A DNA stretch of 64,000 bases from Octopus sinensis (taxonomy: Eukaryota). The stretch's first letter is position 1. Every line of letters starts with the position of its first letter. The DNA is taken from positions 96,410,001 through 96,474,000 of the forward strand of contig NC_042997.1 of NCBI RefSeq assembly GCF_006345805.1, written 5' to 3'. A program made the translations under genes and the position numbers. This document shows, one piece after another, positions 5,440-49,790 of this stretch. Below the pieces are notes generated by a model. That model did no database searches and had not been told where the DNA came from. It saw only the letters and a list, made by a program, of their open reading frames with translations.

Positions 5440-5697
5440 AATAAGGATAATATTGATATTTAAATATCGATCTTATCAAGTGGCCAGCATGGGAATAAGT
5501 ACCATACAAAGGTAATAATTATTTAAAACTATAAATTAGGGTATCTGAGAGATACCACCATGCTGACATAGCAGTCAAAACCCTGACCCAAAAGCCACCT
5601 TAAATGTTCATATAGTTTTATATAATGATTACCTATGTATGATATTTATTCCTAAGCTGGCCACTTGATAAGATTGATATTTAAATATCGATATAAT

Positions 5698-5703
<6 letters not shown>
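5440..5703. repeat. Fold-back element, ~95 bp imperfect arms (5440-5533 / 5611-5703) with ~75 bp spacer
   Basis: tcttatcaagtggccagc pairs with gctggccacttgataaga; gatatttaaatatc occurs in both arms. Confidence 0.85.
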
Positions 5704-5741
<38 letters not shown>

Positions 5742-5863
5742 TATACTATTGCAAGTACGGAATTAAAATAGGATTTGATGTAAACTGTGCTAGGTATGTT
5801 AGAAATATAAAAAAGAAATAAGTATCAAGAAATAGATAACGAAATGTAATATTATCGTGATCA

Positions 5864-5915
<52 letters not shown>

Positions 5916-6487
5916 ACATATTCATGCATAAACATATATATGTGCACATACACACATATCCATGGATATACACACATACATATATGGAAGCATATGCAGG
6001 TATTAATGGACATATGTATACGTATATACAAATGTATATCAATAACACAAGTAATAGTTAAAATATCAAATAGATTGGTAAAAAGTTGATTATGATAATA
6101 ATAATATAAGTAGTAGTAACTATAATAGGTGAAAGAAGTATATTGTGAAAAATTTACAACATACAAGAACATATTGTGAAAAATTTACAACATACAAAAA
6201 AATGCATCTATATGTGTGTCGAAAACTTTGACTAAAAATATATTGAGTAAGAGGGGAAGAAAAGTGAATTTCTGGTAAAAACTATATAATTATTTAAAGA
6301 AAGTGTGAAAGGGTCTTATAATATTAGTTGACGGGGAATAACATATGAATGACTAGGTAGTGTAAGGTAGATAATATAGAGAGTACAGATGATAGAAATC
6401 ATATGTAAAAAGGTAGTAATTATGTAGAGGGAGGTATTATACGAAGAACTAAATTATGAGGAGGAGTAATATATATATATATATATA

Positions 6488-6537
<50 letters not shown>

Positions 6538-6569
6538 ATATATATATATATGTATCTATATATATATTA

Positions 6570-9500
6570 CATCCTTGCCAGAAAAAGGGAAAGATGGCTG
6601 CTTATAAATGCCAAAACCTTCCCAGGCGAAGAATGCACCCCACAACATAGACTGGTAGTTAGTGACTTTAGGATCAGGACTAGAGGGCGACTAGAGACGA
6701 CCAACATGGAGAAGAAGGTCTGGAAGCTTAAAGACCATGCGAATGACAGAGATTTAGAGATATGTTACTTGAAGCCTTTGACGAAGTGGAATGGGTATAG
6801 CTACACATGGGGTAGAAGACAACTGGACGTTTCTGAGGGACAACCTGCTGAAGCCGCTGACCAGATCTGTGGCTGGTGCAAAGTCCCCTTAAGACCCAAA
6901 TAACGTGGTGGTGGAACAATATTGTTGACAGGGCTATTAGACAAAAGAAACAGGCTTGGAAGGCTGGAAGAACGGTGGTAGCAGGAAGGGTATCAGACTG
7001 CCAGAAGGGAAGCTAGGAGACAGGTCTATCTAGCCAGAGGGGAAGCAGATAAGAGAAAATTTGCCAATGTCCTGCGCCGTGAGGATGAAAGACTTGAGGT
7101 ATTTCGTGTTGCAAGACAGTGTGTGAGAGAGAATCGTGATGTGGTAGGAGAGAAATGTGTTCGCATGGAGGATGGTTCACTTGCGCTAAATGAGGATGCA
7201 AGAGAGAAGCTTGGAGACGCCACTATGAAAGGTTGCTGAATGAGGAAAATGAATGGGATAAAGAGAGTCTGCTGCCGAATGTTGACCCTACAGAGGGACC
7301 AGCTATCCGAGTTGATAGTTCCGTGGTAGCTAAGGCAATTAGAAGCATGAAGACAGGGAAAGCCCCAGGCCCATCAGGAATTACTGCAGAGATGCTCAAA
7401 ATATCTGGCAGTGTCGGCTATAACCTAGTCACCCGTATAGTCAACCAGGTGATACACGAAGGAGTCATACCCAATGACTGGTGCAGCAGCATACTAGTCA
7501 ACTGCTACAAAGGTAAAGGTGATGCCCTAGATACAAATAATTACAGAGGTATCAACTGTTGGATCAAGTAATGAAGGTTACGGAGAGGGTCATAGCCCAA
7601 CTAATTAGAGAGAGAGTTAGTTTAGATGAGATGCAGTTTGGGTTCGTGCCAGGGAAAAGTACCACTGATGCTATATTCCTGGTAAGGCAGCTGCAGGAGA
7701 AATACCTAGCCAAAGATAAGCCCCTGTACCTGGCTTTCGTTGACATGGAGAAAGCTTTTGATAGGGTCCCCCGATCCCTTATCTGGTGGTCAATGAGGAA
7801 GCTAGGGATAGATGAATGGCTGGTGAGGACTGTGCAAGCCATGTACAGAGATGCCGTAAGTAAGGTTAGGGTTGGCAACATGTACACAGAAGAATTCAAA
7901 GTAGAGGTTGGGGTCCACCAGGGTTCAGTACTCAGCCCCCTCCTATTTATCATAGTACTCCAGGCAATTACGGAGGAATTCAAGACAGGCTGTCCCTGGG
8001 AGCTCCTCTACGCTGACGACCTTGCTCTTATTGCTGAGTCACTATCAGAACTGGAGGAGAAGTTCCAGGTGTGGAAGGAGGGTTTAGAATCAAGGGCCTT
8101 AGAGTCAACCTAGCTAAAACCAAAGTACTAATAAGTAGAAAGGTAGACAATCCACAAATATCTTCAGGAAGATGGCCCTGCTCGATCTGTAGAAAAGGTG
8201 TAGGTAGAAACTCTATAAGATGTACCCAGTGTAAGCTATGGACACATAAGAGGTGCAGCAATGTCAAAGGTAGGCTAACTGGAAGATAGTTTTTGTATGT
8301 GGCAGATGCTCGGGAGCATTAACCTCCGAAAATCTGCAGAAAACAACTTCCGTCACTTTCCAGGGGAAAAACTAGAAGTAGTTGATAGCTTCCGTTATCT
8401 AGGTGACCAAGTCAGTAGTGGGGGTGGGTGCGCTGAAAGTGTAACTGCTAGAATAAGAATAGCCTGGGCAAAGTTTAGGGAGCTCTTACCTCTGCTGGTG
8501 ATTAAGGCCTCTCGCTCAGAGTAAAAGGCAGACTGTATGATGCGTGTGTACGAACAGCCATGCTACATGGCAGCGAAACATGGGCCGTGACTGCTGAGGA
8601 CATGCGTAAGCTCGTGAGGAATGAAGCCAGTATGCTCCGATGGATGTGTAATGTCAGTGTACATACTCGACAGAGCGTTAGCACCTTGAGAGAAATGTTG
8701 TACCTAAGAAGCATCAGTTGTGGTGTGCAAGAGAGACGATTGCGCTGGTATGGTCATGTGGCGAGAATGGATGAAGATGGGTGTGTGAGAAAGTGCCAAT
8801 CCCTAGCAGTTGAGGGAACCCGTGGAAGAGGTAGACCCAGGAAAACCTGGGACGAGGTGGTGAAGCACGACCTTCGAACTTTAGGCCTCACTGAGGAAAT
8901 GACCAGCGACCGAGACCTTTGGAAATATTCTGTACGTGAAGAACCAGGCAGGACAAGTGAGCCCAGCCCACTTATGAATGCCTTTCCTCCCTTGGACACA
9001 AAGACCGGTTGAGGCAAGCGAAGTCGATATAGAACCTCATCCGACGACAGACACCCATGCCAACCCCCCATGCTTGCGAAGACATGTTGGGGCAATCGAA
9101 ATCGAAACGAATTGAACCAGCCAGGATCCCTGGCCTGGTGGTACGTAAAAAGCACTATCCGACTCGTGCCGTGGCACGTAAAATACTCCAATGCGACCGT
9201 ACAACAGGCACCCATGCCAACCCCCCTTTGCTTGTGAAGACTGTTGGGGCAAGCGAATCGAAATCGAATTGAACCAGCCAGGATCCCTGGTCTGGTGGTA
9301 CGTAAAAAGCACTATCCGACTCGCTCGCGGGCCGTGGCACGTAAAATACTCCAATGCGACCGTACGACAGGCACCCATGCCAACCCCCCTTTGCTTGTGA
9401 AGACATGTTGGGGCAAGCGAAATCGAAATCGAATTGAACCAGCCAGGATCCCTGGTCTGGTGGTACGTAAAAAGCACTATCCGACTCGTGGCCGATGCCA

Positions 9501-9780
9501 GCACCGCCTCGACTGGCTTCCGTGCCGGTGGCACATAAAATACACCAATCTGACCGTGGCCGTTGCCAGCCCCGCCTGGCACCTGTGCAGGTGGCACGTA
9601 AAAAGCACCCCCTACACTCACGGAGTGGTTGGCGTTAGGAAGGGCATCCAGCTGTAGAAACATTGCCAGATTAGACTGGAGCCTGGTGCAGCCTTCTGGC
9701 TTCCCAGAACCCTGGTCGAACCGTCCAACCCATGCTAGCATGGAGAACGGACGTTAAACGACGATGATGATGATGATGAT
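6570..9780 (+). mobile_element. RTE-clade LINE, 5'-truncated and frameshifted (APE end, RT, PHD insert, C-terminus, 3' UTR, (GAT)n tail)
   Basis: APE C-terminal motif ILARK..QHRLVVSDF; RT motifs GKAPGPSGI, QFGFVPGKST, FVDMEKAFD, GVHQGSVLSP, LYADD; RTE C-terminus RRLRWYGHVARM..RGRGRPRKTW; tail gatgatgat at ~9763-9780. Confidence 0.96.
9044..9493 (+). repeat. ~160 bp tandem repeat (about 2.8 units) in the RTE 3' UTR
   Basis: Units start near 9044, 9201 and 9364 (caggcacccatgccaacccccc..., gaaccagccaggatccctgg). Confidence 0.93.
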
Positions 9781-9961
9781 GTACATACATATATATATAG
9801 TATATATATATAACATGCTACATATATATATATATATATACATATATATATTATATATATATATATATTATATATATATAATATATATATATATATATTA
9901 CGGAGTTGTTGTACTCGCATAGCAAGTGATTCGATCTGAGATCGTGTGGGCTGGAACGAAA

Positions 9962-10261
9962 ACAATTGCAGCGTGAAGGTGTTTTGTAAGCCTTTAAGAA
10001 CACACGAAAGCCCGGTCGATTCACTTCAACATTTAAGTTTAATTTGTCAAAATATTTTCGTCGCTAAAATCCGCGACCTGTTCACTGACAAAATCCGTGC
10101 TGCATCTGATTCTTGTATGCATCCGATTTTTGTCAGTGAACAGGTCGCGGATTTTAGCAGACCAAAATATTTTGACAAATTAAACTTAAATGTTGAAGTG
10201 AATCGAACGGCTTTTGTGTGTTTCTTAAATGGCTTATAAACACCTTTCACGCTGCAATTGT
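9962..10261. mobile_element. Fold-back element (~135 bp arms) with a hammerhead-like motif in each arm; putative Penelope-derived
   Basis: Arms 9962-10095 and 10125-10261 are reverse complements. Confidence 0.85.
10043..10092 (-). ncRNA. Minimal type-I hammerhead ribozyme motif, G3:C8 variant (second copy on + at 10129-10179)
   Basis: TTTGTCA-GTGAACA-G-GTCGC-GGATTTTA-GCGAC-GAA-A-ATAT-T-T-TGACAAA: 7 bp stem I, 5 bp stem II, palindromic vestigial stem III. Confidence 0.6.
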
Positions 10262-10262
10262 G

Positions 10263-10480
10263 TACTCTTTTACTCTCTTACTTGTTTCAGTCATTTGACT
10301 GCGGCCATGCTGGAGCACCGCCTTTAGTCGAGCTAATCGACCCCTGACTTATTCTTTGTAAGCCCAGTACTTATTCTATCGGTCTCTTTGCCGAACCGCT
10401 AAGTGACGGGGACGTAAACACCCAGCATCGGTTGTCAAGCAATGCTAGGGGGACAAACACAGGCACACTAACACACACAC
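10263..10480 (-). mobile_element. SINE family A, 3' half
   Basis: tactcttttactc...cagtcatttgactgcggccatgctggagcaccgcc, near-identical to the reverse complement of the 63000-63090 region. Confidence 0.92.
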
Positions 10481-10562
10481 ACATATATATATATATATAC
10501 ATATCTATAATATATATATACATATATATATATAATATATACATAATATATATATATTATAC

Positions 10563-10600
<38 letters not shown>

Positions 10601-10750
10601 CTATAATATATATATAATATATATATATTAATATATATATATAATATATAAATCCGTAATAGAAGGGTGAAATTAATTAATTTGGAAAAATTATCAATTA
10701 CCCAAGTAGTCTTCGGCATGTAAAAGCCTCATTCGAGGAAAATTTAAGTA

Positions 10751-10985
10751 ATACTAAGCAATAAGGGTTTAGCAACGAGTCCTTACCACATACCGAATTT
10801 AGAAATAGCAGTCAAGGGTTATAGCTATTTCTTCTACTAAAACCTCGCGATCGTTCCAGCACACGATCGTTCCAGCACACGATCTCAGATCCCTTTTTAG
10901 TAGAAGAAATAGCTATACCCTTTGACTGCTATTTCTAAATTCGGTATGTGGTAAGGCAACTCGTGCTAACCTTATTGCTTAGTAT
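10751..10985. repeat. Fold-back element, ~90 bp arms; spacer holds a 16 bp tandem duplication
   Basis: ccacataccgaatttagaaatagcagtcaa pairs with ttgactgctatttctaaattcggtatgtgg; gatcgttccagcacac x2 in the spacer. Confidence 0.9.
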
Positions 10986-12033
10986 ATATATAATATATAA
11001 TATATATATACATATATATATACATATATACATATATATATACAATATATATACATATATACATATATATATATAATATATATATATCTATAATATATAT
11101 ATATATCAGTTAATGCAGCACATGTGAACAGCTAGATGGGAAAATATCGGACATATAATTAGCCATATGTCTGCTGTTTATACTTGCACGGAAATATAGT
11201 CGTACACACAAGCACGCATACACTCGCACACATACACACACATACACAGAGATGCAAATACGCGCGCGCGCACATAGACACGAACTTACACAAAATCGCA
11301 AGTCTTTAGACTTGCCTCAAAAAAGAAAGATTGAGATTTTAAGTAGCAAATATCAGCTATGGACAGAGATGATAGACATAATCATTAACAAATAAACTGT
11401 AGGTGAAACAGAGTAGTGTGAACAGATTAACTGGGAGTGGAATAAGGAAATATTGAAAAATAGGTTGGAAATAATTAAGGATGCTCACTTTGATAGCAAG
11501 GACCATTCCGAAACAAAAATAGAAAGTTCAATATTAAAACAAGGATAGCAAACAGAATACTTATTCTTAGTAACACCCATGTACAATTGTTAGCAAAACT
11601 ATCCAGAAATTTTGCAGCCATACAGTTATCTATGCCAATTCTGTTATTGGGCGGCTCTTTGATAGCGACATTCATGCCGTCAGGAACTGTAGAATGTACT
11701 CGGCAACGCAATATTTTACAATAAAATATAATATATTACAGAGCAATATAACGCAGTACAATATGATATGATTAATATAATATGATTAATATACAATAAT
11801 GTAATTAATATGATATAATACAATTAATACGATATAATATAATTACAATGTTATCCGTTATATGATGAGCAAATCTGGGAGTATACTACTGTGCCATGCG
11901 TAATATCAGAAAAATGGCATACACAAAATAATTTAACTAATATCAGATTTCTTTGTGCTTATACAAAAATGACAAAAGGTAATTTAAATTTAATTTTTTA
12001 AAAAATCAATATTTATTAACATTTTTTCTTTAG

Positions 12034-12115
12034 AGACGGCGAGCTTCCAAAATATATTGCAGGCCGAACAAAATGCTTAGCGAAGTTCTGGGTTCAAATG
12101 TCTTTCATTCCACAG
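12034..12115 (+). mobile_element. SINE family B fragment
   Basis: ggcgagct...aaatgcttagcg...gttctgggttcaaat resembles the head at 61388. Confidence 0.5.
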
Positions 12116-12451
12116 TTGCTGGTATTTTGCAACAATTTGAAACCTATATTTATTAAATTTATTTGAGAGTACAATGTGCCTTCCAGATGTTTAAAAATCA
12201 TTTCGGGACAGACATATATTAATACAAAACCCTAGTTTTCTTTAAAATAGAACTTCGAACTTCAGTGCACTTGTTGTAGCGTTCCAGTCACTTCTTGAAG
12301 GCCCCATGGAAATCCATCTCCACCCCGTATATATATGTCTGTGTGTGTGTGAGAGAGAGAAAGAGAGAGAGAGAGAGAGATAGTATGTGTTCGCCTATCT
12401 GTAAGAGGATGCATATATACATGTATATTTGTGTGAATGTATGCGTACATG

Positions 12452-12533
<82 letters not shown>

Positions 12534-13095
12534 GTACGTGTATGTGCACGCAGCGCATTTGCTATGGTGTATCTGTATATAATCGTGCGTCTATATTTAC
12601 AAACATACATTTCTGAGTATGACTGTTTTCTAACTTATCTAACACGAAAATGTTTCTTTGTTTCCATTTGAAGCGAATATATTTTTATTTTTGTTTTATT
12701 TGTCTCTACATATTTTCTTTATAGAGACTTATGCAAAACATTGTATTACACTTTCAACAGTTTAGATGCATTTCAGTTGCCGATTTTCGTTTTTATTACA
12801 CTAATTTCATTGTTTTTCATATAATCTCTTAAATTTGATATGCTTTAAATTACTCTATTTCGCTTTTGGATTTGGTTTGCAAGATTCTTTGTGTTAAATA
12901 CTAAGGCACTAAAAGAGAATGCCTCTCCCCAGACACAACAGAATTAAATTCTTCTGTTCATACGTTTATAATTGACTCATTCGCCCTCTCTGCCTATAGC
13001 CTTGCCTATCACCTTTTCCCCTAAGCTTCCTTTTTCCTATCACATTCTACCACTACTTACTCTGCCCACGTTAATCACCTTCTACTCCGCTCTCT

Positions 13096-13134
<39 letters not shown>

Positions 13135-14193
13135 TCCCCTCTCTTTCTGTCTCTCTCTTTTCTAACGATCTTCTTTACCGCTACCCATTTTCCCCTCTCA
13201 CTGATACACCCTCTATTTTGTTTTATGACTTTTATTCCTACATGTTAACACTTTGTCCTTTTCTGACCTCTTGCTTTTTCATTCCTCACTCACTTTTCCT
13301 CTCTCTCTAATTCCTTCATTTACTACATCTCCTCCTCTGTCTCTGGGATTCTTTCTCTTTTACTCTGTTTGTAGCATTCTTTACTCATTACGTTTCACCA
13401 AACTAAGTATATGCACTCCTCTTGCAACTCTTATGTTAACACTCTCTGCATTTATTTTTTAATTCTCTCCCACTTCTTTGTGTACGATGTAAAGCGTGAC
13501 TGGAGAAGTCAATGAGCAAACTAACTTTTATATCGGCTATTGTATTTTACTAATAACGCCATGTGACACATTCGGGGATCATGCCAAATACAAATACCGA
13601 ATGAAAAATGTTGAGTGGAATTATCCTCAATGATTTTCTGATATCCTTTATCAAATTTTTGCATACAAGCTTTGGAATCTTCAATACAAAATCTAAAATC
13701 AAAAATAGAAATCAAATTAAAGTGGGCATAGAATGTAGCTCTTTCTTTTGAGTGTACAGTAACGGTAGGACAAGTGCTGTTAGTGTTGATGTAACTGCAC
13801 ACGTTAGGGTTCTCTCTCATTGTAGTTTGACTCTTGTAGTTATGTGAAATGCATCTGTTCCTGTTTGATAGTCGTGTGAATTCAGGTTGATGGTGTAGTG
13901 AATAGGATGTGTAGTTACAGTTGATTAGAGGAAGGAGTATGCAGAAATCTGCAGGTACAGGATATAACATTTGAAGTACCAAGTGCATTTAGTTGGATTG
14001 TGGTAGATTGCATTGGTAGCAGAGTTTGTTAAATACGCTGCTATAGTCCTGACAATGTACACGTAGAAAATATTGCCAGTGAGGAAAAAGAAGGGGAGAG
14101 AAATAAAAGAAACAAGAGAGAACAACAATAATGTAAAGATGGTGATAGAAATGTTGATAAATTAACTTAACCTAAGTCTTATTCCGCTTACAG

Positions 14194-14230
14194 GAAGAAT
14201 TACACCCGAACTGGAATGTGTTTCTTGCAC
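14194..14230 (+). other. Possible 37-nt exon (cttacag| ... |gtaagc)
   Basis: Good acceptor and donor, branch-point-like cttaac upstream, open in all three frames; unverified. Confidence 0.25.
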
Positions 14231-14879
14231 GTAAGCGAGTAGAAAAAGTTTCATCCCTCAGGTTTTGGATATTGGCCGGAAAGGTGACAATATTCAACTC
14301 TTTCATTCCATACTTTTGCACTTACTTCTGCTTCCATTGTAAAATTTCACTTTCTCTTCGTTATATTCAATGGAGTACTCCTCTCTCGCCTTTCCTTTCA
14401 ATCGTTAGATCTATTCTGGAGCGAAGGGAAATTTTGTTTCTTTGTATATGCTCTTACGAAGAAAGAAAACTGAATCTTTTGGTTTATATTCATACAGATG
14501 ATGATGATGATGCATTGAATACGTTTTATTATGATTTTAAAATATTGGTACCTATGTTACCTAGACAACTTTAATTAATATTAGTCGTGTTTATGTTATA
14601 TTAGCCGTGTTATGTTTTGTGGAGAAATTAATCTTAATTAGGGTTAAAAAACAACAAGTTATGTTTGTATTTTATTTATTCTCGCATTAGTAACTCCAGT
14701 GTAATTAACTCTATCATCGATTCACTTTTAACATATACTGAATTCTATTAAATCTATTGTATATGAGTTTTATTAGTGACCGGCCGTCACTAATTTTACG
14801 TTATATCGAAAACTTTTATTAATTATTGATACTAATACTAAATTTGTATTAATTTTAATCTTCATGTCAATTTGTCTAA

Positions 14880-15300
14880 ACATGGTAATTTCTAGATTGC
14901 TCTACTAATCTATATCGTGCCCTCTAATATGTTCCTTTATCTCTTGAAAGATATCTCAAGATAGTTACATGTCAGCTTAAAGTCTTATGCCTAATTTACA
15001 TCTCAGTATATACAATGAAATATGCAGAACTGATACGATACTCATGTTCTGCCAAAATTATTAACTAGCGCAGCATAGGCTTCGTTTCTATGTTTCTTGA
15101 TCCAAAATAAATCTTCATAATATATCATAATATTATATAGATGACGGTAATAGTTATAATAGTAAAACTTTTACCAAATCTTAGTGTAATGAGAAGCAGA
15201 TATCTACATATTAGAGGTTGAATTGATATCAAACTCAATTAATCTATATCTAAAGAATTTTTGATATATTAAATCTCTGAAATTAACTACGCTTACAATG
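14880..15300 (+). mobile_element. Highly decayed Penelope-like RT relic
   Basis: gaaatatgcagaactg (EICEL-like) followed by ttatatagatgacggt (LYRDDG-like); many lesions. Confidence 0.3.
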
Positions 15301-16403
15301 TTGAATTTTTTTCTGGCTAACTGTATTTCCTATAGTGTTGCCATTATGTTCTGTAAGTGAAATCTATGATCTACATGTGTTGATACACCGGAAGGGAGCG
15401 CCTTCGTGGTCTGTGTTTTAAAAAGGCTAAGCTTTTACTTAGAAACTTTCTGTGTGGAAGAGACTTTTTAAAAATACTTTTTTTTATGCGTTTATCAAAT
15501 TTATTCCCACTTAAATATGGTTTTTCAGTTTGAACAAAGTATATTGTAGTAGTACAAGAGAAATTCTCATATTGACTTTGAATGCAAAATAGATTCTTGT
15601 TTATATCGCTAGCGGAGGAGAAATATCCTTAACAGCCCCAGCGCCGAGACTACCAGAACACGTAATTTCGATCATCCTTGGTTTTGTTAATGATAGAATC
15701 ATCAAACCGTAGAGGTAGCAACGTATCACCTCAAGGCCAGTATGTAGTACCATAAATTTCATTTGAATAGTTGGTTTTATCGCCAGAGACGAACTGATGT
15801 CTAGTGATTTTAAATTAGCTTTCCGTTTATTATTGAAAGCTATTCGCGTGGTTATTGAATTTGTTATATCTTTAGAAGATTCAAAATGTTTGTCATAAGT
15901 TTTTCCGTTATTTTCTGTTTTGTTTTTTTTTCTTTCGTTTCCTCTGATGATTAATGAAATTGACTTGGCTGTATATAGACGCGCTGAGTCAATTTTTTCT
16001 AGTGAAACAACTAAATTAATCATGGACCTAGGCACCAATATGTCTTGATATGTTGCCTGATGGAAAGAATTCTTGCTTAATACGGATTCTTTTTTAAGAT
16101 CGAACATTCCTGAGGCCTTCCCTTTTCATTTCGTGCAGCAGTGTAGGCTCGTTTAAAGTACAAGAACGTCTCTCAAGTGCTACAAGTATACATAATTTGG
16201 TACTAAAGAACGCGGTAGGTAAGAGCGACGACATCACCATAGTAGAGCCGAATTAATTATTTTGACTAAAAATATATCCTGTTACAGGAGTCAGAGAGAT
16301 TCCTGGCCAAATAACAGGAAATTGGTTACGTGGAAGAATTAAACGCCATTGCATATATTGTTTACATATGTGTATGTTATACACACACATATATATATAT
16401 GTA

Positions 16404-16473
<70 letters not shown>

Positions 16474-16504
16474 GTGTCTGTATGTATGTATGTATGTTTG
16501 TTCG

Positions 16505-16995: not shown

Positions 16996-17048
16996 CCTCT
17001 CAATTCCACTAATTCCATCACACACACACACATATACACACACGCAGA

Positions 17049-17088
<40 letters not shown>

Positions 17089-18102
17089 GTGTGTGTATGT
17101 ATGTATGTATGTATGTATGTACGTGTGTATGCAAGCGTGTACCTGCGAGTAAATATATATGTGAGTTTATGTTTATATGTATATATGTATATATGTATAT
17201 ATATGTATATATATATGTATATATACATTAGAAAACCTCGCTAAGATAAGTATTTATTTATATTTAAGATCTTTAAATTGTAAATTTTTATATTTTATAA
17301 GTCTTTGGTGTAATAATATTTTCCTTGTATAAATATCGTTGTTTATGTAATGATCTAATTATCGTAATTTTCTATATTATTAGATATTAAATTTAAGTTT
17401 ATTCGTAAGATACTACTTAGCGATAGATTTGTTGTCTGATAGTAAGTATATGAGGTGACTAAAGTTAGGCTTTTGTATATACATGTATTAATAGTATTAA
17501 TTGTAGTTTTAAATTTCTTATAATTAAAATTAGATAAACTTTGATAAACTTAGATATGTTTCGACTAAAGATTGGTCCAGGCCATGTCTAACTTAATAGC
17601 ATAACTTAGTTATTGTCTTTTTAAATTGATATTCGCTAGTTATTCCCATTGATAATTATATTTATAGTATTTATAGTAATTATTCGATATTATATAACTA
17701 CGAATTGATTATTTCTATAAGTATTTTACATAAGATTTCCACAAGTTCGTTTAAGTTTGTGTTGTTTGTATTTTTGAAATTAGCTATTTCATCTTTAAAT
17801 ATGAAAAATTAATTTATTAGGTTTTTATTATATGTGCATATATATTTATTTATAGAGATGATTTTAGATCTTAATTATAATACATTTATATATTTTCATT
17901 GATAATTTATATATAATAGTCATTTTTTTTATATTTATGTAATTAGATATAGACTATTACTGATTTTAGACTATTGGTGGGTTTCCTACCTTATAAATTA
18001 AAATTAATATTTAACATTATAATCGATTTTGATATAATCATAATTGTTAAGTTTTAAGTTTCTAGTTTGATAATAGAGTTTATTATAAGTAAAATTATTA
18101 TT

Positions 18103-18514
18103 ACTCTTTTACTCTCTTTTAGTCTTTTACTTGTTTCAGTCATTTGACTGCGGCCATGCTAGAGCACCGCCTTTAGTCGAGCATATCGACCCCGGGACTT
18201 ATTCTTTGTAAGCCTAGTACTTATTCTATCGGTCTCTTTTGCCGAACCGGTAAGTGACGGGGACGTAAACACACCAGCATCGGTTGTCAAGCAATGCTAG
18301 GGGGACTAACACAGAGATACAAACATACACACACACTTATATATATATATACATATATACGACAGGCTTCTTTCAGTTTCCGTCTACCAAATCCACTCAC
18401 AAGGCATTGGTCGGCCCGGGCTATAGCAGAAGACACTTGCCCAAGATGTCACGCAGTGGGACTGAACCCCGAACCATGTGGTTGGTTAGCAGCTACTACC
18501 ACACAGCCACTCCT
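18103..18514 (-). mobile_element. SINE family A, full length
   Basis: Near-identical reverse complement of 62677-63090. Confidence 0.95.
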
Positions 18515-18809
18515 ATATATATATTATATATAATATATATATAATATATATCTATATATGTGTGTGGTGTGTGTGTATATATATATATATACATGTATAT
18601 ATTATATTTATATATATAATATAATATATATATATATATATATTTTTAAATAGATGAATGAAATATCCTATGTTTATCGTCAACATGGAACATTTCGTTT
18701 AACCGAAACCTGAGGTAGCAAATTCACGTCAGAAACACGGTTGAAGCGACCTGTCAAGGGTAGAAACTCCGGGTTCATGTGCAGAAAATTTGTGTGTTGT
18801 ATATGATAA

Positions 18810-19185
18810 ATGAAAATGAAAGAATGGAGTCGAACGAAGATGTTAACAAAATTCCTTTACTATCGACATATGTTTCGAAGACAACATGTTTACATTCCAA
18901 AGGAATAAAGGGTGCATTATGCAATCTTCTCATCTTCCTACTATCTATCTTTGACGTCAATTCTTCTAACGGTATTTTTAAAAAACACTCGTTTTGTTTA
19001 CCATGTAGGCAGTCATCGAAATTTTTGTTTGTCTTGTAGTCGAGAGAGGCTCCCTTTGTTTCCTGAGAAGAAGATTGCATAATGCACCCTTTATTCCTTT
19101 GGAGTGAAATGATGTTGTCTTCGAAACATATGTCGAGAGTAAAGGAATTTTGTAACATCTTCGTTCGACTCCATTCTTTCATTTA

Positions 19186-19190
<5 letters not shown>
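18810..19190. mobile_element. Fold-back element (~125 bp arms, ~130 bp spacer) with a hammerhead-like motif in each arm
   Basis: Arms 18810-18932 and 19064-19190. Right arm CTGAGAA-GAAGA..TCTTC-GAAA-CATATG-TC; left arm reverse complement gives ..GATGA-GAAGA, so the consensus is CTGATGA. Confidence 0.85.
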
Positions 19191-19261
<71 letters not shown>

Positions 19262-19958
19262 TATATACATATATGCATACATACATGCATACATAAACAC
19301 AGTGAGGTATATAACACGTTGCCTAAATACCAATCTTGTGAAATAAGGCTTCTCAAACCAGAAAGGAAAAAGCTGTTTCGAAGACTACAGATCCAATCTA
19401 CCACTGGAACTGTAAAAATCTATAAAACTTCCCAGAAGTGTATCACTTAAGTATATATGAGCATGTGTTGAAATAAAACTGAATAATGACATACATATAG
19501 ACGTACCTACTTACACGTGCATATAGCTGTGGTTTAGGAGAAAGTAAATGAAACATAAGGCTTTAGTGATAGGTAGCGAAATGAAGTCAGTTTTATTCTT
19601 TATGATACAAATTGGTGCTAAGTGGTAAAGGGAAGGCAACGACGTGTGTTGGGACAAGTCATGAACTTGAAATAAGATACTAGAGATGAGAAAAGCGGAA
19701 GTATTATGTAGGTCATTTCACCTATTTTGATTTATCTATCGATATCGATATCGATGCCACTGTATGTGTGTTTTTGTACGTGTATGTGTATGTATATGTG
19801 GATGTGCTTATGTGTGTGTGTGTGGATGTGCTTATGTGTGTGTATGTGTGTGTGCAATAACACTCACTCAGCATGTACGCTTATCGCACGAAATCGAGAA
19901 GTCATGATAGTTATGCATTGGGTTAATATGCTATGGACTTCCCCCTCTCTCTCTCGCC

Positions 19959-20003
<45 letters not shown>

Positions 20004-20102
20004 AAATACCCCAAAAGAAGAACAACCAACACAATAAACAACAATGTGAAGACGTGGTACATTTAAAGTATTAGCAAACGCTCAGGGAAGGAAAGGGAGA
20101 TG

Positions 20103-20137
20103 GTTTAACGTTTCGAGTAACGGGCTTCTTCAGAAAC
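20103..20137 (-). ncRNA. Minimal hammerhead ribozyme motif within a short Penelope-like terminal repeat (~20000-20200)
   Basis: GTTT-CTGAAGA-AGCCCGTTACTC-GAAA-CG-TT-AAAC: intact core, 4 bp stem I, palindromic stem III, weak stem II. Confidence 0.55.
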
Positions 20138-20339
20138 AGAGTAAAGTGCAATAATAGGGAAGACGGGGGAAGAATATAGCATGTGGTTACATTTTGAAAT
20201 GCCATATATATATATATATATACGTGTATACATACACATATATATATATGTGTGTGAAAGAATGTGTGAGAGTATGCATCTATGTATATATAAATGTATA
20301 TAGGAAAACCATGCTACATTAAGTGGACAACAAATACGT

Positions 20340-21215
20340 AGCATGGATCTGCTTCTCTAGGTACCGACTGCAGACCCACCGACTTCTAGTTGCTCCTGTC
20401 ACCGCTTCGTACTCCCTTAGAGCAGCACCGACCATCTCGATTACTATTACGTCGTCTGCGTAAAGCGACAAGAACGTTCTGCATCCTAGATCACGCCCGA
20501 TGCTCATTCAAAAATTCAGCTTCTGCAGCAATGGCGCGAGAGTCAGTTTGTACAGAAGAGGTAAGAATAAACATCCTTGACTGACCGAACGAGCGACGCT
20601 AAACGATTCCGATATGTGGCCATATACCTTGACCTTGGAACAGATGTCGCTGTACAGTGCAGCGATCCAGCCTCTAAAAACCGAAACTTGCTACCACGAG
20701 AACAGCTTCTAAATTGTGGTGGTCGATCCTATTAAATGCTTTCGACTGATCTAAATTGATAGACACGCACACATACACATGCACGCACACACACATATAC
20801 ACATACGGGCACACACATGCGTGAACACCTTCATCTCCATCTACATATGCACAGGAGCACACGCACAAGCGCTCGCCCACACAAATGTGCACGTATACCT
20901 AAATGCACATGCACGGGTGCACATGTACATGGGTGACCATATCCAATTGATGTGTTTCGTCTCGAAGGTCACGAAGTCTCCAGAGAAAGCGCAGCAGAGA
21001 AGTGGAGTTCTCTCTGTCTTTGAATCTAAATAAATGCAAGTATCTTCCCTCGAAGACATTGGCTAGTCATACCATCAGACGGTGTAAGCGTAGCTCTGTA
21101 TAATGCAGCCTTTACGAGACAGGATCCTCCTAGAGGACAAGTGGTGGGGTCTCGCCAGTTGCCTGTTGGGATTGCGGGTTGTGTAGGTGCGTCTTTAAGC
21201 CTATTGATGCGTGCG
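20340..21215 (-). mobile_element. L1/Tx1-clade LINE RT relic, interrupted by a CA-rich microsatellite
   Basis: INLDQSKAFNRIDH and LSLYADDV..LREYEAVTGA motifs. Confidence 0.75.
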
Positions 21216-21219
21216 ATAT

Positions 21220-21264
<45 letters not shown>

Positions 21265-21281
21265 CAGGGAGAGATAGATAT

Positions 21282-21283
<2 letters not shown>

Positions 21284-21376
<93 letters not shown>
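21284..21376. repeat. (GATA)n microsatellite
   Basis: Direct reading. Confidence 0.97.
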
Positions 21377-22177
21377 CGTCTTTTTTGCTCTCTGACCATC
21401 GAGCTGTGTATCTATTTACCTATTTATCACTTTATCACTCTCCCTCTCTCTCTCTAGTCTTTTCTTTATAACCATCCATTCACGCGTTTATATCTCCCCA
21501 TCAATAATCTTAAATCAATTCATAGTTAATCAAAATTCCTTAATGTGCAACTAGCTTCAGTATCAGGAAATTCTCTCTTTTGTGCGGATGAATGTGTCTA
21601 GTGTTCTGTTATACAATAACGTGCATCTCTTATTTCTTTTATCCATTACACACGACTCTTCTTTTCGTCCATAAATACCTTACATTTAGACACGTTTTTC
21701 CATCCATTTTCTGGTTATCTTTTACCTTCTCTCACTTTATATTTTCGTCTTTGTCTCAGTCTGCTTCTCTGTCTGCTTCTCTCTCTCGCTCTCTCTCTCT
21801 CTCTATCTCTCTCAACATCTGTGTCTTTGCTTAGCTTACTGTCACTGTCTCTGTCTCTCTGTCTCTCTGTCTCTCACCCTCTCTTTCCTTTTAATTGTCT
21901 AAGTCACTCTGCATCAAACGCTGTTCTGTGAAAATCAGGCATCGATTCATTGGCATCGTAATTCAAATTTGACCTAAATTAGTTACAGTTGTGTTACCGT
22001 AAATGTGCATGCATTGATTTACTAATGTGAAAAAAACGGCATATATATATATATATATATATACATACACATATATATATATATATATATATACATGTAT
22101 ATATATATATACATATATAAGTATATATATATAGACACACACACACACGTACGCGCATATATATCTATATGTATGTG

Positions 22178-22260
<83 letters not shown>

Positions 22261-22722
22261 ATATACATGTATACACATGCTCACATACATATATGAACAA
22301 ACATTTATACACGCACACATTTTTCTGTGGGAAAGTCATTTTTGTCAATTAACTATACACAAAAATCTCTCACGTACACCGTTTCTCCGTATTAGAACGA
22401 AGAGTAATTAAAATGTCAGTATTCTTATCAATTACCAAATATCACCTTGCACTTTTGAGATCTTGTCACTGACACAGTTCCACAATATCGCTGAATGTAT
22501 GTTAAATTCCAATGAATTTATGCAACTTCCCAGGTGTAAAAATTTCATTGAAGTTTTCATAATTACGCGAGATGTATTATCTTCTCTGACAACTATGAAA
22601 TCAATAATATATTTTTAAACCGTTTTTTCTGTAACTAACAGTTATTTGGTGTGGAATTTCTCCCCTTTTTGGCTCTCTGCATATGTCTGTATATGTTGCA
22701 TAAATGTATATACGTACTATGT

Positions 22723-23150
22723 ATACGAGGGTGGGCTGAAAAAGTTCCTGAGACTAGAGATGTAAAACTTTGCATGCATTAATTTCATATCTTCTTTTTA
22801 ACAACTGCATTATTTCTTTCCAGGTAAACTAACATCAGGCTGTCCAGAGACAACTTCAAATGTGACTTGTAGGCACTTCTTTTGAAAATGAACTCACTTT
22901 GGCAGCGTGCAGTTATCAGGTACCTGCAGAAAATGGTTTAGTCCACAAGGACATTCATGCCAAATTGGTTACTACATTATAGGAAGACCCTCCAGTTCTC
23001 ATCAAATGCGAGCAGCTGAATTTAGGAGGGGAAGGGAGAGTCTTAATAATGATCCAAAGCTGGACGTCCTGCAACTCCTACCACCGAGGAATACATTGAT
23101 CGTGTTCCCTACTTAGTCGTCGATGACAGGTGATTGACTATAAATCAAAC
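22723..23150 (+). mobile_element. Mariner 5' fragment (TIR plus HTH region)
   Basis: TA-CGAGGGTGGGCTGAAAAAGTTC terminus; RAVIRYLQK..KDIHAKLV and FRRGRESLNNDPK. Confidence 0.8.
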
Positions 23151-23179
23151 AGCGATAATTTATATATATATATATATAT

Positions 23180-24071
23180 GAGATTAGTGGAGGGGAGGTA
23201 CGACGGCTAGCTCGGAGCGAACCTGGACGTCGACGAGGAATACCTGACCCACCTGTTCAGGACGACTTTCGGGCCAGGAACCATGGACAACTTCCAGAGA
23301 TCCCTGGCCTGGCAGTGCTATCGAGAAGCGCTACCCATTCGGGATAAGCTCTATAGACACGGCTCGAGAAACACGGGGCCGACCTGCCCGAGAAGCGGTC
23401 AGAGCGACGAAACCATTCTGCATGCACTCGTGCAATGTCCAACAATTTCCGACCTGTGGGCTTATATCGAACGACTCCTGTCACGTGTGGGACGAGTCGG
23501 TTTATCAGCCGAGTCTATCGACAATATTGTCACGCCTCCTTCCTTCAAACGGGAGGGAAGAGCTATTTTCATCATTCTTGTGGCTATGGCGAAAGAATGT
23601 ATCTGGTGGACGCATCTGAAAGGATTGGAGACAAACACTTTCCGCTCTGGTCAATCTCTCATCAACTTCTTCAAGTATCACTTGAAAAGGCAAGTGAGAG
23701 TTGAGAGGCAAGTTTTGTCTAGCGACTGTTTCAAAAAATAGATGGGTGAATGTAACAAGGATGGCACGTATGACTGACGAAGCCACCTTGAGCATAATCC
23801 TATGAACCCGAAAAAAATTAAAACAGAGTGTTACTTACTTGCAAACAAATGTGTTAACATGTGACATTATTGTCCGAGGTTACCGTGGTTTTTTCCGTAG
23901 GCTTTTCTTTCCACGGATAAAACTTATCTGCTTCCCCCTTTACACTTTACATCATGACATTTCTGTGATACACGATCCCTATTGATCGAAAACCTACCCC
24001 CCCTTTTTTCTCCCCAAAAAGAAAAGCTCTACTTTGTAATCTGTGTGCAGCCCTGTGTAGCTAATAAAGAA
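23180..24071 (+). mobile_element. L1/Tx1-clade LINE 3' fragment (zf-RVT/CCHC)
   Basis: LAWQCYREALPIRDKL..TCPRSGQSDETILHALVQCP; ends with aataaagaaa before a microsatellite. Confidence 0.85.
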
Positions 24072-24152
<81 letters not shown>

Positions 24153-25215
24153 GCATGTATATATGTATGTACACTCAAACATATATTTCTCAAAAAAAGA
24201 ACTCCATTCTTTTGCAAATTACACAGGAAATTATGAATCTCCCGTCATAATTTTTCCTAAGAAAACCTACGAATAAATATTTTTTGTTCTGTATTAAATA
24301 TTCATAAATGACCTTCTGCATAATTAGAAATGGCATGCATTAATCTATCACTCTTTATACCTCTATCTCTCACCTAATACATTACCAGCCTCTACGACTT
24401 ACAAATGCTATCCACTTCAGTTTCCTCTAATCCATTATTTCAGTAAACAGATGAATGATTATTTTCTTAGTCACTTTTGTATTCCTTTTATAATCAATAA
24501 GTTTTCCATGAATGAATAACGTATAATTTTTGCAAAGTTTAGCAAGCAAGGCAGCGTCAGCATTCTGTCATTGTTTTTACCTCTATCTCACAGGCTGCTT
24601 CCCCCTGCCTGTCAGTCTATCTCAATATATGTATTGATGCATTTACATATACACCTAGACAAGCACTCACAAAGACAAATGCACGCTTTTTACTCAAGTT
24701 ATCATGCTACAATTTTGGAAAATACGAATATAATTCTTTTGAAAACATCAGTAAAAATTGGAACGAAAATGACGAATTTGTCTTGTTTTTCAAAACCTAA
24801 ATATATATCTATTTTCTATTTCTGTTCAACTTAACAGTTAACTTCTTTACAATACTACTAAGGTGTCCACACACAGTCAGTTGTATGTTGTTATCAGTAG
24901 AGCTGGAAATCTATCAGACTTAAAGACTTTTGCGACTGAGCGTGTATTTACTATAATAAAAAGAATTTGCCTGACATCCCACTAAATTAGATAAGAAATT
25001 CACAAAAATTATTGTATATTCAGACATTGTGTGTCACAATTTATTCTTTGGGTATATAATGTTACATACAGAAATATAACATAAAAACTAATATGAAATT
25101 TGCTGTATTAAACGATTCTTTCAGTTCGATATGGTTTTTACTTAACTCTTTGTTGGATACATACCTAAAACTAAGAACATACACCAATGGGTCAAGATGG
25201 ATTTGGTATTAAACC

Positions 25216-25558
25216 TTATTTTATACAACGTTCGTTTCGACCCGTTCTGCTATATTCCTTTGTGTTCGACTCTGTTCAACAAGTGTTGCGTCTATTTTGC
25301 AGTCTGGGTCTCGTCAGGTACATTCATTGATGCAGTTGTGTCTCACTAAAGATCTAGAGTGTCGGCTACCATGTTGTTATATGCCCGTCTTATAACAACA
25401 TGGCAGCCGGCATTCAAGATATTTAATGTGACACAAAGTTATCTATGGATGTACCTGATGAGACCCAGACTGCAAAATAGATGCAACACTTGTTGAACAG
25501 AGTCGAATGCATAAACAACAATTGCAGGACAGGTCGAAGCGAACGTTGTAAAGAATAA
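25216..25558. mobile_element. Fold-back element (~165 bp arms, ~10 nt loop) with a hammerhead motif in each arm
   Basis: catgttgttata-tgcccgtct-tataacaacatg at the centre; arms pair throughout. Confidence 0.92.
25222..25323 (-). ncRNA. Type-I hammerhead ribozyme motif with extended stem II
   Basis: TGTAC-CTGACGA-GACCC-(~63 nt structured insert)-GGGTC-GAA-ACG-AA-CGT-T-GTATA; the right-arm copy (25449-25552, +) has CTGATGA but GAAG. Confidence 0.7.
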
Positions 25559-26069
25559 TTCCTTAAGGATAATTATGGATTGTAAATTATTTAGACAATA
25601 CATTTTAGTCAATGACAATTGTTAGAAAACGATATACAGTGAATAAGAAATATTGAATTTCTAAATCTCTCGTAGAGAGATTGTCTCCCCTTCGTATATG
25701 TATATAAGGACACAGGGAAAAAATGTGTCAAAGCTATCAGGAGGCGTTCGATGCTCCTAGGGCTATACAGCGGTGGTGTACCCCCTACTGTCACGTTCTT
25801 GTTAGATTGACAGTATACAACCATTCTATCGACACACAGTGAGCTCTTTACTATTACGCTATATTACAACTGAATAGTAGAACAATTAAATATTACATGC
25901 GGCATAACTACAGATTTCTGCCCGCTCCACCCCGAATTTGGATGATCATAGCTTTCAGAAAAATGGATATTTTTTGAATGAAAGTTTTCTACGAATATGT
26001 GTTATGTCATGTAGATTCAGAATATACAAAGTTTTAATAAACCTTTTTCTGGTGATATCTGAAATGAAC

Positions 26070-26206
26070 TTTAGCAAAGCATATTAAACAACGCTAATAA
26101 GACATTAAAAAGCATAAATATAAACAAGATTATGTCGGTTTTATAGATATTTGAAAATGATGATGCTATGATGCTAGGTGTTTCTATTATTTTGTCCGAC
26201 CCCTGT
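26070..26206 (-). mobile_element. Tc1-like element left end (same family as 28788-31912)
   Basis: ggtgtttctattattttgtccgacccctg is the reverse complement of the 28788 TIR, and the adjacent sequence matches too. Confidence 0.8.
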
Positions 26207-26219
26207 GAATATATATATA

Positions 26220-26267
<48 letters not shown>

Positions 26268-26277
26268 GGGAGAGGGT

Positions 26278-26432
26278 GTCCACCACCTCTGCTTGACAGC
26301 CGATGTTGTATTGTCTAAGTCCTCGAATATTTGGAATTAGACTTAGTACCTGTCGATTCATTCGACCAAACCCTTCAAAGTGGTAACCCAGCATGGTCGC
26401 AGTTCAATGACTGAAGCAAGTAAAAAATAAAA
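26278..26432 (+). mobile_element. SINE family A 3' fragment
   Basis: gcttgacagccgatg...ccagcatggtcgcagttcaatgactgaagcaagtaaaa. Confidence 0.8.
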
Positions 26433-27101
26433 CATTTATATAAGAATGTACGGATGTATATATACGTTTAAAAATAAATGCTGACATATGTAAATGATTT
26501 TTATTATATTTATACATTTATATAGTATAGATACGCATAGAAATACATATATGTGAAAGGGAAAACAGACATATGCACGCGCTTGTATTTGTGTCTATGA
26601 ATTAAACGGAATATATGTGTAAAGTATTCGCGTAGGCATGCTTATCATTGAGGAATCGTTAGACAAACTGAACCCAGTTCACTTGAACAGAAACAAAACA
26701 CAAATATAAGATTATGCTTTGAGCTGACTTTTCAAAACATTTTAGTTACAGACGTATTAGATATGCAAATATCTTGCAGCAAAAACACTACGTGCAAGTA
26801 ACTTATTGTTTTGGATATAAGAAAATGATGGCATATGGCCGAGTGTTTTAGGATGCTGCAAGCATGAGATCGTGATTTCATCTTCTGGACCTGGAGGTAC
26901 TTCGTGCAAACACGTTTCATGTCGCTCTGCTCTACAACGACTTCGATACCTTATGCGCGGTACACTGTGTACCTGTTCAGACGATTTGACAGAGGGAACT
27001 AATGTACAGCACATATACTTCAGCTCTATAAACTAATCATTTGTGCTGCTTCTTCAGTAAGGAATTGCATAATACCTCCTATCCAGGAATACCGGAGACC
27101 A

Positions 27102-27155
<54 letters not shown>

Positions 27156-27156
27156 A

Positions 27157-27205
<49 letters not shown>

Positions 27206-27210
<5 letters not shown>

Positions 27211-28306
27211 ATAAGAGTAAATAATTTCTATAAAGGCTTTTAAAAAAACCCAATTATTTACTGGTAGAATTCGGTATGTAAATATAGCCGATTACCGGCA
27301 GGAACTTCTGTAAAGTTCAGTATATATATTGTATATAAGAAAAAGGGACAGGCAAACAGGTTGCTTGACCGCATACCGAAAAAATAGAAATAGCAGTCAA
27401 GAATGCTTATTTCTATCAAAGTTGGACTCCAGGTACGACAAACCCTGTAATTCACATATGCAAAACAGAAGGAATAGATAACGAAAACGAAGTCTGGTGG
27501 TTATCTGTGAACATCATGTTTCTGGATTATAAACATATTGAATATATATTTCATATATATTTTTTATATATATTTCATATACATTGCATATATATTTCAC
27601 ATCCTTCTTCAGCACAGCTTTCCATTGAAAAAGATTTATCATAGATTTATCAAATGCTACGTACCTCAAACCTTCTGACCATGCGACATCAAAATATTTG
27701 AAGAAAGTGAGCAAAAGCTAAACCTACATAGACGTTTGAATTCGTAAATCTTCCCTCCAAAATTTTGCCATGCGCACTACAAAAATAGTTCCATAAGATT
27801 GGGAACTATTGGGTTGTCATAATGGAGTGAAAAATCCAAATAGTAATATAATAATAAGAGTAAATAATTTCTATAAAGGCTTTTAAAAAAACCCCAATTA
27901 TTTACTGGTAGAATTCGGTATGTAAATATAGCCGATTACCGGCAGGAACTTCTGTAAAGTTCAGTATATATATTGTATATAAGAAAAAGGGACAGGCAAA
28001 CAGGTTGCTTGACCGCATACCGAAAAAATAGAAATAGCAGTCAAGAATGCTTATTTCTATCAAAGTTGGACTCCAGGTACGACAAACCCTGTAATTCACA
28101 TATGCAAAACAGAAGGAATAGATAACGAAAACGAAGTCTGGTGGTTATCTGTGAACATCATGTTTCTGGATTATAAACATATTGAATATATATTTCATAT
28201 ACATTGCATATATATTTCACATCCTTCTTCAGCACAGCTTTCCATTGAAAAAGATTTATCATAGATTTATCAAATGCTACGTACCTCAAACCTTCTGACC
28301 ATGCGA
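27206..28306 (+). repeat. Direct repeat pair (27206-27686 and 27849-28306) separated by ~160 bp of unique sequence
   Basis: Essentially identical copies apart from a 24 bp indel; duplicated ORFs at 27258 and 27902. Confidence 0.95.
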
Positions 28307-28368
28307 TATACATATACAGACACACACATACATATATATGTATATATATATACATATATGCATATTGT

Positions 28369-49714: not shown

Positions 49715-49720
<6 letters not shown>
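49312..49720 (+). mobile_element. R4/Dong-clade REL retrotransposon 3' fragment (family 1)
   Basis: KCFLIDVSIPADDN..K*KYKDLETEVTRMWNLKTETIPIIVGALG..AHILRRTLS*; ends in (AAT)n. Confidence 0.9.

Positions 49721-49787
<67 letters not shown>

Positions 49788-49790
<3 letters not shown>

Follow-up and report, generated by a model that had tools for sequence, protein, structure and literature searches.

A folded module with an invariant 14-mer is shared by three hammerhead-bearing repeat families of Octopus sinensis and may serve as a reverse transcriptase handle

The stretch of DNA considered here, referred to below as the window, comprises 64,000 nucleotides of the Octopus sinensis genome (contig NC_042997.1, positions 96,410,001 to 96,474,000). 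A sequence-only reading of the window had noticed a short motif, ATAGCAGTCAA, next to a stem in three dissimilar repeats and had proposed that the two form an undescribed ribozyme or a recognition structure for a reverse transcriptase (RT) or endonuclease. We found the motif exactly where that reading placed it, on the plus strand at 5568, 10805, 27390, and 28034. The stems likewise lie at 5485/5558, 10712/10788, and 27270/27371, the last repeated at +644, and enclose approximately 65 to 92 nt (given earlier as 65 to 90 nt). A fifth exact copy, absent from the earlier list, is located on the minus strand at 10922 to 10932. When one mismatch was allowed, the window contained six matches, compared with a mean of 2.49 in shuffled sequence; 4 of 100 shuffles reached six. 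On the minus strand, the motif is part of an invariant 14-mer, UUGACUGCUAUUUC, at 27387 to 27400, the plus-strand complement of which contains ATAGCAGTCAA. Further copies of the 14-mer lie at 28031 to 28044 and 10802 to 10815 (minus strand) and at 10922 to 10935 (plus strand), and a variant with one change (TATGTC) is found at 5565 to 5578 (minus strand). In the genome searched (2.72 Gb, 13,516 contigs), the 14-mer TTGACTGCTATTTC, as read on the minus strand of the window, occurs 12,905 times versus 11 times for a control, and a 17-mer around the motif has 798 exact copies versus none for its control. A literature text search for the motif strings returned only unrelated primer sequences.

The motif is carried by three non-coding repeat families, A, B, and C, with units of 644, approximately 598, and approximately 482 nt, respectively. 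None of the units has a long open reading frame (ORF), the longest being 51 to 107 amino acids, and their GC content is 0.32 to 0.35. The family A insertion spans 27203 to 28309 on the minus strand. It consists of a full 644-nt unit (27203 to 27846), preceded in the sense direction by a 5'-truncated unit (27846 to 28309), and its fixed sense 3' end, at 27203, adjoins a (TA)n tract at approximately 27100 to 27202. Scoring of 40 of 1312 family A candidates yielded 134 matches, and full-length copies are 94 to 100% identical and arranged both in tandem and inverted. Family B forms tandem arrays with a period of approximately 598 nt and is represented in the window by a two-armed insertion. Its left arm (10650 to 10842, minus strand) is the 3'-terminal ~190 nt of the unit, without the hammerhead described below, and its right arm (10890 to 10985, plus strand) is inverted head-to-head; the 52-nt spacer between them, with a 16-nt tandem, lies at 10843 to 10889. 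The tandem consists of two exact copies of the 16-mer CGATCGTTCCAGCACA at 10848 to 10879. For family C, there are more than 3000 candidates, and the typical match is the 187 nt at 5427 to 5613 of the window; a unit of approximately 482 nt was delimited in another locus (L047). The window copy is the 3'-terminal 187 nt (minus strand), again without a hammerhead, accompanied by an inverted arm of 107 nt (5611 to 5717, plus strand) that is 88% complementary to 5427 to 5533 and ends beside a (TA)n tract at approximately 5701 to 5745.

The ends of the insertions indicate both the sense strand and the type of element. In all 12 family A loci examined, one end is fixed at unit position 1 to 3 (plus-strand reading) beside a TA-type microsatellite; the opposite end is variable, extends beyond the unit length, or becomes an inverted piece. 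One fixed and one variable end is the pattern of target-primed reverse transcription, and we therefore take the minus strand of the window as the sense strand. Close inverted pairs are all head-to-head in sense terms, in 19 of 19 cases among the listed 17-mer places and 17 of 17 among the listed 14-mer places. The families thus show the footprint of Penelope-type insertion: partial tandems, adjacent inverted 5'-truncated copies, and (TA)n targets. Tandem and inverted insertions of this kind, directed to (TA)n, were described for Penelope-like elements by Craig et al. 2021 (PMC8557442). A miniature inverted-repeat transposable element or foldback DNA transposon was rejected, since the single fixed end, the variable other end, and tandems longer than the unit argue for reverse transcription. 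A tRNA-derived short interspersed nuclear element (SINE) head was also rejected, as there is no B box and the pentamer (A/G)GT(A/G)G that precedes the stem is a strand of a further stem.

In each family, a type I hammerhead motif precedes the 14-mer by 100 to 125 nt in the sense direction; it is thus not on the strand used in the sequence-only reading. The sense-strand architecture in families A, B, and C and subfamily A2 consists of helix I, CUGAAGA or CUGAUGA, a long helix II insert, GAAA, a helix III of 2 to 3 bp, and U followed by H. In family A copy 1, the motif lies at 27505 to 27618 (minus strand) with a predicted cut after 27510 and has GCUGUG/CACAG as helix I, the core CUGAAGA, the long helix II insert, GAAA, and a short helix III; in the partial family A copy, it lies at 28149 to 28238 (minus strand) with a predicted cut after 28154. 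Our own type I descriptor (CUGANGA ... GAAA ... UH, with helices I to III in type I order) matched the window three times, on the minus strand only, two of the matches being those in family A, and did not match any of 30 window shuffles. It also matched family B (four of five units of locus L016), family C (L047, L048, L050, and L052), and A2 (L006). An Rfam scan of the window returned no family at gathering score. The Rfam model Hammerhead_1 (RF00163) aligned at full length to the family B sense strand with 22 bits (E 0.011 in 651 nt), below the gathering threshold of 34, and gave no match in families A and C, probably owing to their long helix II insert. A hammerhead on the opposite strand via GAAAUAGCAGUC was rejected, as there is no CUGANGA partner there.

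As judged from sequence, then, the hammerhead motif is on the same strand as the motif-bearing region in all three families, with cleavage predicted. Its presence in each family identifies families A, B, and C as putative animal non-LTR (long terminal repeat) retrozymes, that is, Penelope-type non-autonomous elements of a known class; they are low-GC, non-coding tandem repeats with one hammerhead per unit. They are new members of this class and may already be catalogued in Dfam or Repbase. The third descriptor match in the window belongs to a different element, at 25227 to 25317 (minus strand; CUGACGA ... GAAAC, predicted cut after 25227). An inverted copy of this hammerhead is located approximately 150 nt upstream in the sense direction (approximately 25450 to 25560), and there is no 14-mer nearby.

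The stem noticed earlier, here called P1, is one helix of a larger fold, in which an outer stem (P0) is combined with the region of the 14-mer and a P1 domain made up of several hairpins. In the sense direction, the order of this module is P0, a hairpin region with the invariant UUGACUGCUAUUUC, P1, P2, variable hairpins, P4, the P1 3' strand, a tail hairpin, and the 3' end of the unit. P2 directly follows the P1 5' strand, and the P1 3' strand abuts the P0 3' strand. The pentamer (A/G)GT(A/G)G is one strand of P0, whose 3' strand reads CUAC or CCAC in sense. In family A copy 1, the module occupies 27261 to 27420 on the minus strand (the second copy, 644 nt on, lies at 27905 to 28064), with P0 at 27411-27420/27261-27269, P5 at 27405-27416/27384-27394, P1 at 27371-27380/27270-27279, P2 at 27346 to 27370, P3b at 27302 to 27318, and P4 at 27287 to 27299. 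A UA-rich stretch lies within the P1 domain just 3' of P2 (27320 to 27339, minus strand). The family B left arm contains the whole module, with P1 at 10788-10797/10712-10721 (minus strand), and the right arm contains the P0 5' strand, P5, the 14-mer, the P1 5' strand, and P2. In the family C copy (minus strand), P0 is at 5594-5601/5478-5484, P1 at 5558-5567/5485-5492, P2 at 5540 to 5556, P4 at 5500 to 5514, and the tail hairpin at 5446 to 5477.

The description of the three repeats as dissimilar was borne out. The significant alignment of family A with family B is confined to 82 nt at the module (72% identity, E 5.5e-8), and family C shares with A and with B only the exact 14-mer. The 14-mer itself occupies a loop and a hairpin 3' strand in A and B and a hairpin strand and a single strand in C. 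A 3' splice site at the 14-mer was rejected, since AG follows it only in family C. A pseudoknot between AGTCAAG and CTTGAC, which had been suggested for two loci, did not hold up: when the sequences are read, the two strings are complementary only in subfamily A1 and not in A2, D, B, or C.

When 11 modules were aligned with MAFFT alone, the misplacement of family C left RNAalifold with only 4 predicted pairs, and for this reason pairing was assessed in a model-fitted alignment for A, B, and D and in manual tables for C. For the former, 26 matches from A, B, and D, giving 22 distinct rows, were fitted to a model made from five A-type copies. In it, 88.3% of cells pair, compared with 34 to 40% when the partners are slid, and 17 pairs change on both sides, compared with 2 to 9; none of 500 shuffles reached the observed value. 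G·U cells number 49 versus 17 A·C cells, which favors the sense strand. In 48 distinct full instances of P1, pair 4 is G-C in A and B, G·U in one C copy (L045, whose G-bearing 5' strand recurs in other C copies), and A-U in C. Pair 6 in these instances is U-A in A, U·G in all 16 B, and C-G in C. For pair 10, family A has C·A, family B has U-A, and family C has G-C, and P0 forms the series GUAG/CUAC, GUGG/CUAC, GUGG/CCAC. The sequence-only reading had called the stem compensatory, which can be seen clearly only when family C is compared with families A and B; on the strand that it read, the stem of the second locus contains a C·A mismatch and that of family A ends in a wobble. Relative to shuffles, plus-strand folds gave z scores of -4.6 at loci 1 and 3 and -1.6 at locus 2, and minus-strand folds gave -2.8 to -3.6 across the loci. 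The structure is best supported on the minus strand, opposite to the strand first read. On these comparisons, compensatory changes preserve the module fold, and their G·U intermediates would pair only on the hammerhead strand. A covariance model built from family A (R1) also gave a weak match at window positions 32693 to 32890, which lack the motif.

These patterns bear on two explanations that assign the module no role in RNA. It could be the least diverged remnant of a single ancestor of the three families, with no function; the homology of A and B is indeed evident there, and individual old copies do gather changes in the motif. We consider this quite improbable: family C retains the exact 14-mer although it aligns nowhere else, paired positions change together, and all three families are young and active looking, with thousands of copies. 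Alternatively, the 14-mer and its surroundings could be a DNA-level internal promoter or transcription factor site of a pseudo-long terminal repeat (pLTR)-like region that drives the downstream unit. Penelope pLTRs and plant retrozyme LTRs contain promoters (PMC11167929, PMC9695139, PMC12029980), and partial upstream copies often retain just the module region. However, compensatory changes with G·U intermediates on one strand point to selection on a single-stranded fold, so that a promoter in place of an RNA structure seems fairly improbable; a promoter in the 14-mer could coexist with an RNA role of the stems.

The arms of the insertions end beside (TA)n tracts at two places, the 3' end of the unit (site 1) and an inner UA-rich site just 3' of P2 (site 2). 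In unit positions, the inner ends fall at 463 to 467 and 493 to 526 in family A, at 482 to 499 in B, and at 417 to 432 in C, and site 1 is at 640 to 644, 591 to 596, and 520, respectively. The cluster at 515 to 526 constitutes site 2 of family A and corresponds to the UA-rich stretch in the window, where arms of other family A copies end next to (TA)n. When 30 arms were taken in genome order by their exact 14-mer, the alignment ended at site 1 for 12 of them and at site 2 for 17, with 1 unclear. Two-armed insertions had one arm at each site in seven of seven cases. The family B insertion in the window has this form, with its left arm terminating at site 1 (10650; the unit 3' end) and its right arm at site 2 (10985; ...TTGCTTAGTAT), each next to a (TA)n tract. 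All three families have the same sense layout, with 100 to 125 nt from the predicted cut to the 14-mer, approximately 50 to 80 nt from the 14-mer to site 2, and approximately 90 to 120 nt from site 2 to site 1.

This layout also bears on the proposal of a new self-cleaving or self-ligating ribozyme. The module is a conserved junction of several helices that includes an invariant stretch, and the motif matches no Rfam ribozyme family: covariance models of twister, pistol, hatchet, hepatitis delta virus-like, and hairpin ribozymes gave no match in the window at gathering score, and ribozyme models applied to the motif gave none at E values up to 10 (27150 to 27950) or up to 1 (family B and C loci). 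Nevertheless, a canonical type I hammerhead core is already present in every unit, 100 to 125 nt upstream on the strand opposite to that first read. The local fold around the 14-mer differs between A/B and C, which argues against a shared catalytic core, and no single site in the motif accounts for the insertion ends. We regard a new ribozyme as very improbable and as the least likely of the alternatives.

What is known of Penelope retrotransposition suggests another role. For a Penelope element of Anolis, Frangieh et al. 2024 (PMC11167929) mapped the start of reverse transcription to a pair of adjacent internal positions within a stem-loop that follows the hammerhead cut by 85 to 92 nt. Both target DNA strands are cut and then extended, the motif bound by the protein lies immediately downstream of the hammerhead, and the segment separating the two starts forms the genomic "tail" (PMC11167929). 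A relationship of retrozymes to Penelope pLTRs has also been described (10.64898/2026.07.22.740005). Our families resemble the Anolis element in that two sites, of RT start there and of arm ends here, lie in a structured region downstream of the hammerhead, in head-to-head arms that would fit the use of both target strands, and in AT-rich targets. Because the module lies in the same place and is associated with the same two-site, two-arm footprint, we read it, by analogy, as a region where RT may bind and start. The module is the sole part common to otherwise unalignable retrozyme families, and the two sites of arm ends next to (TA)n lie within it or at its edge. Accordingly, the recognition structure first proposed fits the evidence, although it is something that we infer.

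Our preferred reading, to which we give about even weight for and against, is that the module is a conserved folded region between the hammerhead and the 3' end that would act as the handle where a Penelope-type RT binds and starts cDNA synthesis. The enzyme would recognize the 14-mer and the junction approximately 50 to 80 nt upstream of the inner site, the two places where arms end would be start sites of reverse transcription, and extension of both cut target strands would produce head-to-head arms. A more specific and rather doubtful version is that the three-way junction and 14-mer form the template-choice handle of telomerase-like Penelope RTs, 50 to 80 nt upstream of the internal start, and that retrozymes spread by means of this handle and not the hammerhead. 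Equally tentative is a likeness to telomerase RNA, in which a TERT-binding junction is paired with a nearby template.

The fold could instead be part of the dense self-pairing typical of retrozymes, serving stability or circularization by a host ligase with no specific protein handle, and the 14-mer would be kept for another reason. The whole hammerhead-to-hammerhead monomer of 644 nt is indeed strongly structured (-179.5 kcal/mol, z -8.1 against 20 shuffles, with P5 and P1 retained), and circular RNAs of metazoan retrozymes have been described as highly self-paired (PMC7229834). However, the rest of the unit is unalignable between families, yet the module keeps its helices, their order, and the exact 14-mer, and general stability explains neither the invariant 14-mer nor arm ends in or near the module. 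We consider this alternative unlikely.

Several observations weigh against a handle for RT. The pair counts come from an alignment fitted to the structure and from related copies that are not independent, both of which inflate the figures; R1 matches families A and B and not C; and the homology of the family C helices rests on manual reading. Pair 10 of P1 in family A is C·A and would be a wobble on the other strand, the single point of this kind. Both end sites are UA-rich and abut (TA)n, making the exact junctions ambiguous, and microhomology or later slippage could yield the same arm ends. The comparison with Anolis is also imperfect: there the start is AC-rich, lies 85 to 92 nt from the cut, and is not homologous to the target, with sites 30 to 40 nt apart (PMC11167929), whereas the sites here are UA-rich, (TA)n-like, 126 to 307 nt from the predicted cut, and approximately 90 to 120 nt apart, a wider spacing between the two classes of ends in all three families. 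In addition, binding was measured for the Anolis element (PMC11167929), whereas binding to the module is a proposal. Finally, none of 20 GIY-YIG loci carries the 14-mer or the module within 1.5 kb, the units of A, B, and C have no meaningful similarity to 27 Penelope/hammerhead loci or to Penelope ORFs (just two short matches of ~30 nt to those loci, E ~3e-4), and the motif is absent from seven other hammerhead loci of the genome and thus is not general to hammerhead elements.

The link to Penelope suggested at the outset was therefore right in kind, although no Penelope ORF that carries the module was found. The units are not autonomous Penelope elements, having no long ORF with RT and GIY-YIG domains and no similarity to Penelope ORFs, and the odd 17-mer contexts (L013, L026, and L027) contain no ORFs. 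Candidate enzymes exist elsewhere in the genome, as ORFs with an RVT_1 domain followed by a C-terminal GIY-YIG domain that end in (TA)n. One young Penelope family (L063, L064, and L073; G000 C10, C6, and C13) has ORFs of up to 883 amino acids with RVT_1 and GIY-YIG and ends in (TA)n; a hammerhead-like motif approximately 75 nt from its end has UUGAUAA for CUGAUGA, with two core positions changed. Contigs of four sequencing runs, whose RNA origin is only guessed and which are uninformative on strand, ends, and circles, cover parts of unit A. In two of these runs, which bear a related organism label (X3 and X6), contigs of depth 56 and 579 share only the 46-nt module core at 27355 to 27400 and differ in their flanks; they come from a related family that is represented in the assembly by one copy (L084), in which the hammerhead core is decayed.

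The families can be compared with several known systems. As in animal non-LTR retrozymes, they are non-coding, low-GC tandem repeats with one type I hammerhead per unit and strong self-pairing, and such retrozymes are proposed to be moved by Penelope-like elements (Cervera and de la Pena 2020, PMC7229834; Li, Clavereau and Pollet 2026, 10.64898/2026.07.22.740005). Relative to those retrozymes, the units here are larger (482 to 644 nt versus mostly 150 to 450 nt), have a helix II insert of 25 to 83 nt, and share a module of 160 to 190 nt whose invariant 14-mer links three unalignable families, for which the passages compared give no counterpart. The parts of the retrozyme and Penelope literature that were compared likewise do not describe a conserved 14-mer junction tied to both end sites. 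Penelope-like elements likewise insert into (TA)n, form partial tandems (pLTRs), and lie next to inverted copies truncated at the 5' end (PMC8557442); unlike them, the units here lack an ORF. The (TA)n-preferring Naiads have no canonical hammerheads (PMC8557442), whereas each family here carries one.

Minimal type I hammerheads of Penelope-like elements have reportedly been described by Cervera and de la Pena in 2014 and by Lunse et al. in 2017. The hammerheads here are also of type I, with a very short helix III and a short, partly palindromic loop (ACGUACGU in family B), and differ from the minimal form in the long helix II insert and in an A·A mismatch at the base of helix II in A and C. 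R2 and stringent pairs of long interspersed nuclear elements (LINEs) and SINEs have recognition structures in their 3' untranslated regions, and unrelated non-autonomous families share a folded module near the RT start. Their comparison with the module is an analogy only. The enzyme class differs, the Penelope-type being telomerase-like, and the start is internal as opposed to at the RNA 3' end.

Other repeats occur in the window. Broken non-LTR retrotransposon ORFs at 6460 to 9012 (plus strand; RVT_1 E 3e-25 at 7541 to 8113) run opposite to the retrozyme sense strand and appear unrelated to the retrozymes. Stop-free frames at 8754 to 9753 (minus strand) repeat peptide words (…IVLFTYHQ.RDPGWFNS…), which points to a tandem DNA repeat immediately after the LINE fragment. 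The ORFs at 49719 to 50936 and 23211 to 23741 (both plus strand) have weak zf-RVT matches (E 6e-4 and 2e-6, respectively) and are likely LINE remnants. A 44-nt inverted repeat (28732 to 28775 and 29296 to 29339, 84% complementary), one arm of which reads ...CCAGCATGGCCGCAGTCAAATGACTG..., resembles the family C words CAGCATGG and GCAGTCAA and is probably another abundant repeat.

Template choice by Penelope-like RTs is known from only a single vertebrate element, examined in vitro. The module is a small and concrete RNA element for which natural compensatory variants are available as controls. The conserved part of retrozymes that is not a ribozyme can be more informative than the hammerhead itself.

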